DNA of 64,000 nt from Octopus vulgaris (lineage: Eukaryota): NCBI GenBank assembly GCA_951406725.2, contig OX597831.1, positions 22,320,001 through 22,384,000 on the forward strand, in the 5' to 3' direction. Every line of letters starts with the position of its first letter. Within the stretch, counting starts at the first letter, position 1. Position numbers and translations under genes: made by a program. This document shows, in pieces, positions 6,660 to 35,631 of the stretch. The notes beneath the pieces were generated by a model. That model worked only from the letters and a program-made list of their open reading frames with translations, was not told where the DNA came from and searched no databases.

Positions 6660-6700
<41 letters not shown>

Positions 6701-6707
<7 letters not shown>

Positions 6708-6816
6708 TCAATATAGGGTGGCAAAAAAAAAAAAAAATTTTTGTAGAATTCTTTTGCCACCAGCGGCCTAGTAGGAAAAAATTAAATAGTCATAGACCAT
6801 TTTTAAGTTTAACATC
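6701..6816 (-). repeat. Fragment (first ~115 nt) of the 495-nt retrozyme unit
   Basis: Matches 8596-8706; abuts (TA)n on the left and the LINE fragment on the right. Confidence 0.9.
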
Positions 6817-8080
6817 TTTGCAAAGGCCTTTGATAAAGTCGATCATGGAATGATATGTCACAAACTGCGTGATCTCAACATAGTTGGAAAACTGGGAGAA
6901 TGGCTTCATGACTTTCTGAAAGATAGAAGTCAGGTGGTAGTGGCCAATGGGGCCACTTCCATTAACACGCAAATAGTGAGCGGTGTTCCGCAGGGCACTG
7001 TTCTGGGACCACTACTGTTCATAATGGCCCTCTCAGACATGCCCTCAGCCACGCAGAGAGCCACGATCACAAGTTATGCAGATGATACAAAAGTTTCACA
7101 GGCAATACAGAACCCTAAGGACACTAAACACCTGCAATGTGAGCTAGACAAAATATACAAGTGGGCCGAAAAGAATAGCATGCAGTTCAATGCTGAAAAG
7201 TTTCAAGCTCTATACTATCAGCATGCAAAACTAAATGCAATACCCAATGAATACACTGGACCCGGAGGAATAGCAATCCCAGAGGCACAATCAGTGCGTG
7301 ACCTAGGTATTTACATGAGTGATGACGCGACCTTTCGTGTACATGTTGCTAAATTGGCAATGAAATGTAGACGACTGGCCGGATGGATCCTCAGAACCTT
7401 TAGAACAAGAGAACAAGAAACCATGATGGTCCTCTGGAGGACACTTGTCCTAAGCCACTTTGACTACTGCTCTCAGTTATGGTCACCATCCAGTGTCAAG
7501 TTGATCACAGAGCTCGAGGCGATCCAACGTAGCTACACGAAGAAGATAGCCTCTATGCAGAATGTAAGCTACTGGGAAAGACTCAGGAAATTAAAATTAT
7601 ATTCCCTGGAGCGTAGGCGGGAAAGATATGCCATAATATACATCTGGAAGATCCTGGAGGGAAGTGTCCTGAACTTTGGCATCGAGAGTTACGCAAATGC
7701 CAGAACTGGGCGCCACTGCGTGGTGCCTAGGACTCCAAACTTGCCATCAAGATGTAGGACAAGATTCTGTGATAGCCTGGGCTTCCGAGGCCCACAGCTC
7801 TTCAATATCCTCCCGAAGAACCTGAGAGACCTGCATGGGGTGGATACAGATGTCTTTAAAATGAAGCTGGATCTCTTCCTGTCAGGTGTCCCAGATGAAC
7901 CAACTTCACGGCAGGAGGGGCAGATGAGGGCAGCTGCATCGAACTCTCTCATGCACCAAATAGCAGCTGCTAGAAAGCCTTCATGAAGTGAAACCAAGTA
8001 GCAACACCAAATGGCGGTGCCCCAGCATGGCCACAGCTCATAAGCTGAAACTGGAAAAATCAAAATCAAAATCAAAATCA
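6816..8080 (+). mobile_element. CR1/L2-group LINE 3' fragment (RT C-terminal part, ORF 6850-7986); inverted copy of ~10733-11996
   Basis: FAKAFDKVDH, SGVPQGTVLGPLLF, YADDTK and YSLERRRERY motifs; (AAAATC)n tail; begins abruptly mid-RT. Confidence 0.92.
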
Positions 8081-8159
8081 TATATGTATATGTATTTATG
8101 TGTGCATATGTGTGTGTGTGTTTATGTATACGTATGTATATACATATATAAATAAATAA

Positions 8160-8211
<52 letters not shown>

Positions 8212-8331
8212 ACAATCAAGGAACGGCCATAATAGGCCATTCACCCACTAGAAATAACAGCCAAAGCTTCAACCGCAAATAAAAGTTAATTCTGTAAACC
8301 AGGAGAAAATTTAAAAAACATTTACCCTGTA

Positions 8332-8438
8332 ATTTCTTATACGATATACCGTTTCATCTGCTGATTAATGGTAAACTAACCTGATTAAATTAAATCAAGC
8401 CAATCTTCCACAGGCCCTCAGATTCATCAGTAAGAAAT
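8332..8438 (-). ncRNA. Type I hammerhead ribozyme
   Basis: Reverse complement of the motif at 9399-9505. Confidence 0.9.
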
Positions 8439-8827
8439 AGCCCAAGTCGGAACAGATATTTTCACGAGGCATTTCCGACCTTGCCAAGTTTATATCTGAC
8501 CTAAAATTTTCAAATCGTCGCACTCGCGCCAAATTTATCGGCAGCAAATAAATATAAGCCGTCGATTCCATTACGGAATTAACCAGAAAATTCATAATTA
8601 ATCAATATAGGGTGGCAAAAAAAAAAAATTTTGTAGAATTCTTTTGCCACCAGCGGCCTAGTAGGAAAAAATTAAATAGTCATAGACCATTTTTAAGTTT
8701 AACATCAACAATCAAGGAACGGCCATAATAGGCCATTCACCCACTAGAAATAACAGCCAAAGCTTCAACCGCAAATAAAAGTTAATTCTGTAAACCAGGA
8801 GAAAATTTAAAAAACATTTACCCTGTA

Positions 8828-8934
8828 ATTTCTTATACGATATACCGTTTCATCTGCTGATTAATGGTAAACTAACCTGATTAAATTAAATCAAGCCAAT
8901 CTTCCACAGGCCCTCAGATTCATCAGTAAGAAAT
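8828..8934 (-). ncRNA. Type I hammerhead ribozyme
   Basis: Reverse complement of the motif at 9399-9505. Confidence 0.9.
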
Positions 8935-9398
8935 AGCCCAAGTCGGAACAGATATTTTCACGAGGCATTTCCGACCTTGCCAAGTTTATATCTGACCTAA
9001 AATTTTCAAATCGTCGCACTCGCGCCAAATTTATCGGCAGCAAATAAATATAAGCGGTTATTTGCGGTTGAAGCTTTGGCTGTTATTTCTAGTGGGTGAA
9101 TGGCCTATTATGGCCGTTCCTTGATTGTTGATGTTAAACTTAAAAATGGTCTATGACTATTTAATTTTTTCCTACTAGGCCGCTGGTGGCAAAAGAATTC
9201 TACAAAATTTTTTTTTTTTTGCCACCCTATATTGATTAATTATGAATTTTCTGGTTAATTCCGTAATGGAATCGACGGCTTATATTTATTTGCTGCCGAT
9301 AAATTTGGCGCGAGTGCGACGATTTGAAAATTTTAGGTCAGATATAAACTTGGCAAGGTCGGAAATGCCTCGTGAAAATATCTGTTCCGACTTGGGCT

Positions 9399-9505
9399 AT
9401 TTCTTACTGATGAATCTGAGGGCCTGTGGAAGATTGGCTTGATTTAATTTAATCAGGTTAGTTTACCATTAATCAGCAGATGAAACGGTATATCGTATAA
9501 GAAAT
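9399..9505 (+). ncRNA. Type I hammerhead ribozyme, predicted cleavage after GUA (9497)
   Basis: Stem I AUUUCUUA/UAAGAAAU; core CUGAUGA (9407-9413); stem II AUCUG/CAGAU with a long internal hairpin; GAAA (9482-9485); self-complementary stem III ACGGUAUAUCGU. Confidence 0.92.
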
Positions 9506-9893
9506 TACAGGGTAAATGTTTTTTAAATTTTCTCCTGGTTTACAGAATTAACTTTTATTTGCGGTTGAAGCTTTGGCTGTTATTTCTAGTGGGTGAATGG
9601 CCTATTATGGCCGTTCCTTGATTGTTGATGTTAAACTTAAAAATGGTCTATGACTATTTAATTTTTTCCTACTAGGCCGCTGGTGGCAAAAGAATTCTAC
9701 AAAATTTTTTTTTTTGCCACCCTATATTGATTAATTATGAATTTTCTGGTTAATTCCGTAATGGAATCGACGGCTTATATTTATTTGCTGCCGATAAATT
9801 TGGCGCGAGTGCGACGATTTGAAAATTTTAGGTCAGATATAAACTTGGCAAGGTCGGAAATGCCTCGTGAAAATATCTGTTCCGACTTGGGCT

Positions 9894-10000
9894 ATTTCTT
9901 ACTGATGAATCTGAGGGCCTGTGGAAGATTGGCTTGATTTAATTTAATCAGGTTAGTTTACCATTAATCAGCAGATGAAACGGTATATCGTATAAGAAAT
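9894..10000 (+). ncRNA. Type I hammerhead ribozyme, predicted cleavage after 9992
   Basis: Same motif as 9399-9505. Confidence 0.92.
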
Positions 10001-10385
10001 TACAGGGTAAATGTTTTTTAAATTTTCTCCTGGTTTACAGAATTAACTTTTATTTGCGGTTGAAGCTTTGGCTGTTATTTCTAGTGGGTGAATGGCCTAT
10101 TATGGCCGTTCCTTGATTGTTGATGTTAAACTTAAAAATGGTCTATGACTATTTAATTTTTTCCTACTAGGCCGCTGGTGGCAAAAGAATTCTACAAAAT
10201 TTTTTTTGCCACCCTATATTGATTAATTATGAATTTTCTGGTTAATTCCGTAATGGAATCGACGGCTTATATTTATTTGCTGCCGATAAATTTGGCGCGA
10301 GTGCGACGATTTGAAAATTTTAGGTCAGATATAAACTTGGCAAGGTCGGAAATGCCTCGTGAAAATATCTGTTCCGACTTGGGAT

Positions 10386-10492
10386 ATTTCTTACTGATGA
10401 ATCTGAGGGCCTGTGGAAGATTGGCTTGATTTAATTTAATCAGGTTAGTTTACCATTAATCAGCAGATGAAACGGTATATCGTATAAGAAAT
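10386..10492 (+). ncRNA. Type I hammerhead ribozyme, predicted cleavage after 10484
   Basis: Same motif as 9399-9505. Confidence 0.92.
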
Positions 10493-10612
10493 TACAGGGT
10501 AAATGTTTTTTAAATTTTCTCCTGGTTTACAGAATTAACTTTTATTTGCGGTTGAAGCTTTGGCTGTTATTTCTAGTGGGTGAATGGCCTATTATGGCCG
10601 TTCCTTGATTGT

Positions 10613-10652
<40 letters not shown>

Positions 10653-10732
10653 TTATTTATTTATATATGTATATACATACGTATACATAAACACACACAC
10701 ACATATGCACACATAAATTCATATACATATAT

Positions 10733-12947
10733 GATTTTGATTTTGATTTTGATTTTTCCAGTTTCAGCTTATGAGCTGTGGACATGCTGGGGCACCGCCA
10801 TTTGGTGTTGCTACTTGGTTTCACTTCATGAAGGCTTTCTAGCAGCTGCTATTTGGTGCATGAGAGAGTTCGATGCAGCTGCCCTCATCTGCCCCTCCTG
10901 CCGTGAAGTTGGTTCATCTGGGACACCTGACAGGAAGAGATCCAGCTTCATTTTAAAGACATCTGTATCCACCCCATGCAGGTCTCTCAGGTTCTTCGGG
11001 AGGATATTGAAGAGCTGTGGGCCTCGGAAGCCCAGGCTATCACAGAATCTTGTCCTACATCTTGATGGCAAGTTTGGAGTCCTAGGCACCACGCAGTGGC
11101 GCCCAGTTCTGGCATTTGCGTAACTCTCGATGCCAAAGTTCAGGACACTTCCCTCCAGGATCTTCCAGATGTATATTATGGCATATCTTTCCCGCCTACG
11201 CTCCAGGGAATATAATTTTAATTTCCTGAGTCTTTCCCAGTAGCTTACATTCTGCATAGAGGCTATCTTCTTCGTGTAGCTACGTTGGATCGCCTCGAGC
11301 TCTGTGATCAACTTGACACTGGATGGTGACCATAACTGAGAGCAGTAGTCAAAGTGGCTTAGGACAAGTGTCCTCCAGAGGACCATCATGGTTTCTTGTT
11401 CTCTTGTTCTAAAGGTTCTGAGGATCCATCCGGCCAGTCGTCTACATTTCATTGCCAATTTAGCAACATGTACACGAAAGGTCGCGTCATCACTCATGTA
11501 AATACCTAGGTCACGCACTGATTGTGCCTCTGGGATTGCTATTCCTCCGGGTCCAGTGTATTCATTGGGTATTGCATTTAGTTTTGCATGCTGATAGTAT
11601 AGAGCTTGAAACTTTTCAGCATTGAACTGCATGCTATTCTTTTCGGCCCACTTGTATATTTTGTCTAGCTCACATTGCAGGTGTTTAGTGTCCTTAGGGT
11701 TCTGTATTGCCTGTGAAACTTTTGTATCATCTGCATAACTTGTGATCGTGGCTCTCTGCGTGGCTGAGGGCATGTCTGAGAGGGCCATTATGAACAGTAG
11801 TGGTCCCAGAACAGTGCCCTGCGGAACACCGCTCACTATTTGCGTGTTAATGGAAGTGGCCCCATTGGCCACTACCACCTGACTTCTATCTTTCAGAAAG
11901 TCATGAAGCCATTCTCCCAGTTTTCCAACTATGTTGAGATTACGCAGTTTGTGACATATCATTCCATGATCGACTTTATCAAAGGCCTTTGCAAAGTCGA
12001 GATATATCACTTCCACATTTGAGTGGTTGAGCAGCCGTTTCAGCACCCAGTCATAGTGTTGTAGCAGCTGAGTTAAACAGCTTCTCCCTGGTCGGAAACC
12101 ATGTTGGGTGTCGGGCAGCAAGTCATTTTCTTCAAGGAAGGTGATCAGCTTCCTTCTGACTATTCGTTCCATGACCTTGCTGATGTGTGAGGTCAGAGAG
12201 ATAGGTCTATAGTTCTTGGCTTCCGCTCTGCTACCTCCTTTATGAATGGGGCATATTTTACCTTCCTTCAGTTTTCTTGGAAGTTTGCCAGCTGCAAGGA
12301 AGCTCTGAAAGAGGAACTGCAGTGGTCTTGCTAGGGCTCTCTTACATGCTTTTAGGAGGATTGCCGGGAATCCATCGGGGCCAGTAGCTGAGTCTGTTTT
12401 CATTTCATCTATAGCCTTGATTACATCGTCTTCCTTTATATCGATGTAATCTATCGTCGCCGCCTCTGATTTTATATCTGCAGTGGTAAAAAAGTCAGTT
12501 GGATTGGTGATTTGGAGATGCCCAAGGGGTGGAGTGAAACACTCTTGAATTGCTCATTCAGTATTTCACTTACCCTCATTGGTTTTCCTGTAAGTGTGCC
12601 ATCCTTTTCGAGGAGTGGCCCTATTCTACAGTGCACCGTAGCTGTTTCTTTGGCATACCTGTAGAAAGCTCTGGGGTTAGATTTTATGTTGTCTATAGCC
12701 CAGGCTTCTTTGTCTGCTCTTTCCTTTTCATGGGAGAGTTTCAGACATTTTTCGATTTCCAACAGTTTTATTTTTAGGCGGGACTTTTCACTGCTTTCAA
12801 TCTGTTTGTTTAGGCGATTTGAAAATTTTGTACGCCGTCTCATTAGAATTTTCCTCTCTCTGGGGATTTTGTTCTTGTGTACAGTGGCCTTTCTCTCTGG
12901 GACATATTTGTAGCATATGGCTTGCATTACAGACATGAATTGTTGAA
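10733..12947 (-). mobile_element. CR1/L2-group LINE, 5'-truncated (ORF2 pieces 12472-12936 and 10826-12403 separated by a frameshift)
   Basis: GPDGFP, NYRPISLTS, QHGFRPGRSC, YLDFAKAFD, GVPQG and YADD RT motifs; IKSNPRAFYRY upstream; (AAAATC)n tail. Confidence 0.93.
10826..12403 (-). CDS. LINE reverse transcriptase domain ORF (525 aa, part of a broken ORF2)
   Basis: Full set of non-LTR RT motifs in one frame; no endonuclease domain in the window. Confidence 0.75.
   Translation of the reverse strand: MKTDSATGPDGFPAILLKACKRALARPLQFLFQSFLAAGKLPRKLKEGKICPIHKGGSRAEAKNYRPISLTSHISKVMERIVRRKLITFLEENDLLPDTQHGFRPGRSCLTQLLQHYDWVLKRLLNHSNVEVIYLDFAKAFDKVDHGMICHKLRNLNIVGKLGEWLHDFLKDRSQVVVANGATSINTQIVSGVPQGTVLGPLLFIMALSDMPSATQRATITSYADDTKVSQAIQNPKDTKHLQCELDKIYKWAEKNSMQFNAEKFQALYYQHAKLNAIPNEYTGPGGIAIPEAQSVRDLGIYMSDDATFRVHVAKLAMKCRRLAGWILRTFRTREQETMMVLWRTLVLSHFDYCSQLWSPSSVKLITELEAIQRSYTKKIASMQNVSYWERLRKLKLYSLERRRERYAIIYIWKILEGSVLNFGIESYANARTGRHCVVPRTPNLPSRCRTRFCDSLGFRGPQLFNILPKNLRDLHGVDTDVFKMKLDLFLSGVPDEPTSRQEGQMRAAASNSLMHQIAAARKPS

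Positions 12948-34931: not shown

Positions 34932-35631
<700 letters not shown>

Follow-up and report, generated by a model that had tools for sequence, protein, structure and literature searches.

A type I hammerhead with a long stem II and a palindromic stem III in a tandem octopus retrozyme: a probable double hammerhead

Introduction

Metazoan non-LTR retrozymes are non-coding, low-GC tandem units that carry one type I hammerhead ribozyme each (PMC7229834; bioRxiv 10.64898/2026.07.22.740005). They occur as thousands of dispersed copies with a strongly folded monomer, in genomes that also hold autonomous Penelope-like elements (PLEs). The first of these sources gives units of 150–450 bp and the second a range of 51–972 bp. 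Retrozyme monomers can cut by themselves, at ~0.8/min in a coral and ~0.1/min in a mussel, with a stem III shorter than the one considered here (PMC7229834), while eight of nine Xenopus dimers gave no product (bioRxiv 10.64898/2026.07.22.740005).

Newt satellite 2, ASBVd, axolotl retrozymes and the pLTRs of PLEs contain type I hammerheads with a weak, self-complementary stem III, in which tandem neighbors can swap strands to form a double hammerhead (PMC4209133, PMC6155905, PMC6765202). In these systems stem III has 0–2 bp (1–2 in newt and axolotl) closed by a loop of 2–4 nt, and helix II has 4–8 bp (PMC4209133).

The insertions of endonuclease-bearing (EN+) PLEs (Penelope/Poseidon, Neptune and Naiad) typically consist of partial tandems with an inverted head-to-head copy and a tail at one end (PMC8557442, PMC3846280). 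They occupy (TA)n targets, start reverse transcription at two places and may capture flanking DNA (PMC8557442, PMC3846280, PMC11167929). An Anolis element studied in vitro used two reverse-transcription starts and had both strands cut and extended; its insertion did without the hammerhead, which cut only with protein (PMC11167929).

Here we describe a hammerhead family found in a window of 64,000 nucleotides, which is the whole stretch of Octopus vulgaris DNA that was analyzed, and followed through the genome. The octopus family resembles the non-LTR retrozymes in its non-coding, low-GC tandem units with one hammerhead each, its many dispersed copies, its strongly folded monomer and the presence of autonomous PLEs in the genome. 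Its unit of 483–499 nt lies above the narrower of the two length ranges and inside the wider one. Unlike those retrozymes as described in these sources, it combines a 58-nt insert in stem II with a 12-nt palindromic stem III. With the double hammerheads it shares the type I fold and the self-complementary stem III, which in the octopus can form 3–4 bp within one copy and 12 bp between two copies; its helix II amounts to 68 nt in all. Its insertions have the layout of EN+ PLE insertions but differ from them, as reported, in having no open reading frame, in a tail of ~109 nt compared with 30–40 nt, and in a strict pairing of one short with one long end.

Results

Anatomy of the hammerhead

The motif lies on the plus strand and comprises the following features:

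9400–9504, plus strand: type I hammerhead (core and three helices; predicted cut after A9497)
9419–9476, plus strand: stem II insert of 58 nt (4-bp helix 9426–9429/9466–9469 and 14-bp hairpin 9431–9444/9451–9464)
9485–9496, plus strand: stem III, 12 nt, self-complementary (central pair 9490/9491 possible only between two copies)

Stem I pairs 9400–9406 with 9498–9504 (7 bp), the core strand CUGAUGA occupies 9407–9413, and the basal part of stem II pairs 9414–9418 with 9477–9481 (5 bp). GAA at 9482–9484 is followed by the palindrome at 9485–9496 and then by A17, which is A9497. This arrangement matches the type I consensus CUGANGA ... GAAA ... UH with a free N7, and the three helices, whose ends meet in stem I, show compensating changes. 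The exception is the A10.1/C11.1 subfamily, in which the C11.1 copies that were aligned keep A10.1, leaving the basal position of stem II mismatched. The position of loop 2 is taken by an internal loop and the long arm; the mussel retrozyme motifs also lack the usual loop-contact nucleotides (PMC7229834). No hammerhead match was returned by Rfam at the gathering score over the whole window, nor at E ≤ 10 over 9000–10050, a miss that was probably caused by the stem II insert.

The original prediction, made from the letters of the window, described this structure closely. Stem III is fully self-complementary with two G-U pairs, as it had stated, and forms a 12-bp self-duplex of −13.6 kcal/mol. 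Its description of stem III as weak within one copy holds for the hairpin energy (−0.1 to −0.2 kcal/mol), although 3–4 bp can still form there. The predicted stem II extension of ~58 nt with a 14-bp hairpin is present and measures exactly 58 nt. The hairpin also folds well only on the ribozyme-sense strand, as had been proposed: the 35 nt at 9432–9466 reach −11.6 kcal/mol (z −5.4) in the sense orientation versus −2.1 kcal/mol (z −2.0) on the other strand, and the region 9417–9481 gives z −3.3 in the sense orientation versus z +0.07.

Layout of the insertion in the window

The window holds five identical hammerheads of this type, three on the plus strand and two on the minus strand, within one inverted array:

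9895–9999, plus strand: second identical hammerhead, 495 nt (one unit) downstream; predicted dimer partner of 9400–9504
10387–10491, plus strand: third identical hammerhead
8829–8933, minus strand: hammerhead copy in the inverted arm
8333–8437, minus strand: hammerhead copy in the inverted arm
9498–9992, plus strand: single monomer between consecutive cut sites (length 495 nt, GC content 35%, no stop-free frame above 68 codons)
9058–10616, plus strand: right arm, made up of 3.2 tandem units, with its short end 132 nt past the last cut site, on (AT)n
8208–9055, minus strand: units of the inverted arm, which faces the right arm head to head
6816–8207, no strand assigned: inverted copy of the right flank (10617–11996), with a microsatellite and part of a LINE RT gene
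6700–6816, minus strand: 117-nt piece of the unit; long end, ~241 nt past the cut site, on (AT)n at 6660–6702

The piece at 6700–6816 probably represents the left outer boundary of this insertion, which would then run from a long end at ~6700 to a short end at 10616. Between these ends, the left arm contains 1.4 kb of the right host flank as an inverted duplicate, a structure that may reflect a template jump during a single insertion event. Compared over 2.2 kb, one arm departs from the other at 4 substitutions and in 2 indels of repeat length. Inverted flank matches were also seen elsewhere, at 3 of 58 insertion blocks surveyed on contig C1 (L169, L174 and L193) and at L017.

Copy number and conservation of the carrier element

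The hammerhead occurs once per non-coding tandem unit of 492–495 nt. We searched the genome (2.8 Gb in 227 contigs, the window lying on contig C18) with exact 18-letter patterns, so that all counts are minimum values; the same patterns reversed, as controls, matched 0 or 1 times. The search yielded at least 1,860 copies of the ribozyme, dispersed over many contigs and arranged as anything from single units to multimers. They include 1,686 copies with U11.1 (834 + 849 + 2 + 1, by stem III centre) and 174 with C11.1. Representatives of the subfamilies are 91–99% identical, and the units of the window are at least 99% alike. Folded as a circle, the monomer has a z-score of −4.7, with none of 40 shuffles as low; the other strand gives −4.3. 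Short tandem hammerhead units, a GC content below 50%, no open reading frame, many copies and a stable monomer fold are the traits that define non-LTR retrozymes, and the sequence of the carrier fits a young, non-coding member of that class.

Conservation was assessed at the level of whole insertions, in 73 independent regions. All 11 core columns are invariant and N7 takes all four letters. Variable columns number 0 of 11 in the core compared with 75 of 376 in the rest of the unit, a difference that is not significant taken alone (p 0.13). The original prediction had proposed covariation across genomic copies as a check on the structure. In 18 haplotypes, chosen from 56 to span the variation, 5 of 36 pairs have undergone a two-sided change. 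Stem I accounts for three of them, basal stem II for one, and the fifth is the central pair of the palindrome. Covariation was found for these helices and the palindrome centre, and no two-sided change was seen in the stem II arm. None of 500 shuffles reached 5 of 36, a control that related sequences can beat, and we take the result as support without attaching a probability to it.

The centre of stem III

Only the centre of the palindrome is informative about pairing between copies, because any hairpin stem is also self-complementary between copies. Positions 9490 and 9491 are adjacent and have no possibility of pairing within one copy. At the base composition of the unit, two central Watson-Crick pairs have a chance of ~7%, and a single copy proves little.

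Across the genome, 834 of the U11.1 copies have AT at the centre. A further 849 have A, C or G at both positions, and at most 821 of these have GC, the figure being an upper limit because the GC pattern also let two other letters vary. Non-complementary centres account for at least 28 of the 849 (those listed are AC), together with 2 GT and 1 TC. The centre is thus self-complementary in ~1,650 of the 1,686 U11.1 copies counted, and forms with a single change make up ~2%. In the C11.1 subfamily, the centre is GC in all 100 copies listed of 174. Counted once per insertion, 73 regions comprise 49 GC, 23 AT and 1 AC. Stem III is therefore self-complementary, loop included, across variants, as it is in double hammerheads.

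The number of independent changes behind this pattern is small. In a tree of 39 monomers built with the centre masked, at least two centre changes fall on starred branches and three in all, and the paired switch between G-C and A-U rests on 2–3 events. Recombination or chimeras between subfamilies may be the source of the paired switch. The non-palindromic AC form shares 99.2% identity with one GC subfamily and 98% with AT. It is present in at least 28 copies, including a two-armed insertion of 7 copies, and was therefore a viable intermediate, although one that stayed rare.

In one public sequencing run (X15), nearly all contig depth has the GC centre, compared with about half AT in this genome. 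The AT subfamily may be a very recent burst, summed contig depth not being equivalent to copy number.

Folding of single and paired ribozymes

Energy models were used to compare the monomer with the double form. On its own, a copy folds preferentially into a rod that pairs the core strand with the palindrome's 5′ half. Its active fold lies 2.4–2.8 kcal/mol above the ensemble, and 5.2 kcal/mol above it with flanks of ~100 nt. Compared by distance above the ensemble, the active fold of the lone ribozyme lies at 1.7–3.3 kcal/mol versus 0.7–2.4 kcal/mol for the double form. In two-unit transcripts with flanks of 3 or 25 nt, the double hammerhead beats two monomers by 5.5–16.5 kcal/mol in five palindromic subfamilies, in a model that ignores tertiary contacts, Mg2+ and folding during transcription. 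The lead of the double form in the AC subfamily is 5.1 kcal/mol with 3-nt flanks and reverses to −1.7 kcal/mol with 25-nt flanks. When the centre was made non-complementary in silico, the lead fell to 2–3 kcal/mol or reversed. Once the flanks reach ~100 nt, two monomers are favored over the full double form by 0.8 kcal/mol, and monomer or inner-core folds are preferred.

The original prediction had inferred cleavage as a dimer. In its favor, the centre that can pair only in a dimer covaries, and folding favors the double form in most settings; against it, the active monomer fold is near the ensemble and the AC form has transposed. Taken together, natural variation and folding models suggest that pairing between units is likely favored, though perhaps not required.

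The long stem II arm

The length of stem II, which the original prediction had called unusual, is real and is found in all subfamilies sampled. It is accompanied by no extra conservation, and it is not unique in this genome. Within the 14-bp hairpin, 4 of 28 columns are variable versus 75 of 376 elsewhere (p 0.62), and we therefore rejected extra conservation of the hairpin. The changes shared among copies in this hairpin (G-U to A-U, U-G to C-G and U-A to U-G) keep the pairing on the sense strand. No two-sided changes were seen in the arm among the 18 haplotypes. Six variant types in the helices of the arm keep pairing and two break it, which is not a significant departure given that 23 of 36 possible transitions would keep it. 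The allele A9460G is genomic, in 62 copies, and does not count as evidence of editing.

Replacing the whole insert with a tetraloop in silico shifted the monomer by 1.0–1.3 kcal/mol and the double form by 0.5–0.7 kcal/mol. Removing the hairpin alone left the monomer unchanged and raised both dimer folds by ~4–5 kcal/mol, with the gap between them unchanged. The most likely reading of the long stem II is a structural arm that is tolerated and kept paired, with little effect on the balance between monomer and dimer.

Two unrelated families in the genome also have a long stem II, of 44 nt (35290–35333 in the window, z −3.2) and 59 nt (L039, z −3.8). No such stem II arm was described in the literature covered by our search, which was not sharp on this point; PMC8557442 does report relaxed descriptors for longer loops, with half cores 35–50 nt apart. 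A distant sister form suggested by public contigs was discarded, as its one match in the genome has no likeness to the unit, and a deep comparison of the arm was for this reason impossible.

Insertion footprint

A census was made of all 57 clusters listed on contig C1 for the AT and GC/AC-type patterns, with loci that have only C11.1 copies outside the set. After one block cut by a region edge and one shorter than 150 nt had been dropped, 58 blocks in 57 regions were left. Forty of these are head to head and none is tail to tail. Their outer ends sit on (AT)n at one of two distances past the cut site, ~132 or ~241 nt, which places a tail of ~109 nt between the two kinds of end. Of the 58 blocks, 33 could be typed at both ends, 21 at a single end and 4 at neither, and each of the 33 fully typed blocks has one short and one long 3′ end. 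If the ends were chosen independently, such a result would arise at most once in 2^33 by simple arithmetic. The family thereby shows the features by which Penelope-type insertions are recognized, namely inverted copies placed head to head, a one-sided tail and a (TA)n target.

The arms range from 18 nt to ~7 kb and run through up to ~14 cut sites, with inner junctions that are spread over the unit; the template must therefore have been an uncut multimer or a circle. There is no clustering of 5′ junctions around the cut: among 235 sites examined, 2 junctions fall on it or within 2 nt. An apparent excess of junctions there (6 of 100, p 0.049) proved to be largely an alignment-edge effect, and no enrichment was found in the 14-bp hairpin (10 of 100, p 0.15).

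Variants within single insertions bear on the template as well. One 17-unit insertion (L165) has about nine variants that are absent from the other C1 regions and present in nearly all of its units, on both arms. The private variants do not establish a single-circle template as a general rule: at places with at least 3 copies, 57 of 80 private variants are in one copy, 18 in some and 5 in all, and 20 of 79 are found on both arms. Unsampled source loci could explain the sharing of variants across units.

RNA edits fixed in genomic copies were not seen, A>G making up 9 of 126 private variants. Public runs, whose types were guessed, were compared over window positions 9058–10640 and 9350–9560. 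Among runs guessed to be RNA, A>G accounts for 63 of 120 places in X1 and 20 of 49 in X9, and T>C for 27 of 51 in X3. In two large DNA-like runs these changes stay few: A>G takes 3 and T>C takes 6 of 19 places in X15, and the two take 4 and 6 of 22 in X18. X4 is mixed. These counts are no more than a hint of A-to-I editing of the inverted arms. A>G at 9414 occurs in 3 contigs of X4 and in neither DNA-like run; editing at this position in C11.1 copies would give an I-C pair with 9481, and linkage of the two changes was not seen.

Candidate enzyme and other hammerhead families

The genome contains at least 148 GIY-YIG matches. One family has an intact frame of 781 codons with RT, a C-terminal GIY-YIG domain and a CxxxxCxxC linker, a motif that marks Neptune or Nematis elements (PMC8557442). 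This element ends on (AT)n with or without a tail of ~37 nt, and the sole inverted copy with both ends seen (L066) has one end of each kind. It shares no DNA with the unit and was rejected as a homologous autonomous partner; its protein is a candidate for the mobilizing enzyme. In 50 loci around the 148 matches, a small part of the genome, no pLTR homologous to the unit was found, and no unit DNA except a 57-nt piece in L033.

PLE frames beside unit copies were considered as partners in 150 loci. The two that were read (L173 and L177) are nested neighbors with (AT)n in between, and they were rejected. These frames (L173:583–2760 and L177:3740–6099) belong to other PLE families, whose proteins are 58% and 44% identical to that of the 781-codon family, and the (AT)n ends of both elements have received retrozyme insertions.

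Several further hammerheads were encountered. About 0.6–1.1 kb past the 781-codon frame, L061–L073 have a hammerhead-like motif in which C3 is replaced by U3 and G8 by A8, and whose stem III is a palindrome of 6 nt. A G-U pair at 10.1–11.1 or a weak stem I occurs in several copies among those with the longest frames. Two more families stand beside PLE ends, at L039:100–570 and L042:2820–3264, with a stem II of 59 and 26 nt, and the L039 pair is head to head. The window itself contains another family:

35062–35520, plus strand: unrelated 401-nt retrozyme family in (AT)n (core at 35283, 44-nt stem II, 8-nt palindromic stem III)

A first look at the genome gave 556 candidates for this family. Its 25 insertions have a single 3′ end at ~+182 and no inversion, so the two-end rule does not hold for every family. 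Among the other hammerheads encountered in the genome, stem III is a palindromic 8-mer at 35283 and in L039, a 6-mer in PLE 3′ ends, and in L042 a 12-mer with two central mismatches.

Discussion

The sequence evidence and folding models make it probable, in our judgment, that each unit of a young, non-coding tandem retrozyme carries a type I hammerhead that likely cuts best as a double hammerhead of neighboring units, and that the element is likely copied into (AT)n by a Penelope-type enzyme. In a lone copy, the models would have the core strand mispaired with the 5′ half of the palindrome and the active fold in the minority. In a two-unit transcript, the palindromes would pair over 12 bp and free the cores. 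Cleavage would release monomers of ~492 nt, which would be closed into circles and mostly stay uncut. A GIY-YIG/RT protein would then cut an (AT)n tract, and two cDNAs, one starting at +132 and one at +241, would be made on opposite strands and joined head to head.

It is conceivable, though we think it unlikely, that the monomer cuts well, as the coral and mussel monomers do at the rates given above (PMC7229834), with pairing between units optional and the palindrome kept by descent or for a small gain. The 3–4 bp of stem III in one copy, an active monomer fold 1.7–3.3 kcal/mol above the ensemble and the transposition of the non-palindromic AC form are consistent with this possibility. It fits poorly with a central pair that is impossible within a copy and nevertheless switches in step, forms with a single change being ~2%, and with a stem III hairpin of only about −0.2 kcal/mol by itself. 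Even less probable, to our mind, is that cleavage is weak or protein-dependent and needless for spreading, so that uncut tandem transcripts are copied and the motif serves mainly as a folded handle. The Anolis hammerhead is protein-dependent and was dispensable for insertion in vitro (PMC11167929), most of the Xenopus dimers were inactive in the assays reported (8 of 9; bioRxiv 10.64898/2026.07.22.740005), the octopus arms cross up to ~14 cut sites with junctions that are not enriched at the cut, and the A10.1/C11.1 subfamily has spread. A mere handle is harder to reconcile with a core that is fixed with a free N7 in 73 regions and with two-sided changes in stems I and II, and the roughly nine private variants across the 17 units of L165 fit a single-monomer template.

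We give very little credence to the possibility that recombination built up the array in place as a satellite, or that its inverted layout is an artifact of assembly. The window units are indeed at least 99% alike, and long palindromes are reported to trouble assemblers (PMC8557442), but copies of the family are scattered across many contigs and have two fixed ends that sit on (AT)n, and the arms in the window differ at 4 substitutions.

For the stem II arm, a more elaborate role can be imagined, which we regard as doubtful. The 58 nt could be a working module, either a docking site for the partner or a handle for the Penelope protein, that evolved separately in several retrozyme families. Combined with the rule of one short and one long end, this would suggest a dimeric Penelope enzyme that primes two cDNAs asymmetrically from two fixed sites. 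The sites would be separated by 109 nt on a single RNA circle, which the double-hammerhead switch would shield from recutting.

Double hammerheads and retrozymes are already known, and the octopus family is not a new kind of system. Three traits appear distinctive from sequence and models: stem II measures 68 nt, the predicted dimer helix has 12 bp and covaries in natural copies, and the tail is long. Because Rfam misses such hammerheads, those with a long stem II are possibly under-counted. Dimer cleavage by animal hammerheads is known from few assays, and the natural variation of this family provides a sequence-level test in ~1,650 copies. The family also offers a protein-free substrate that is small and very young and whose Penelope footprint is clear, and as such it bears on whether retrozymes use Penelope enzymes and on how inverted, one-tailed insertions arise, two questions that the literature consulted calls open.
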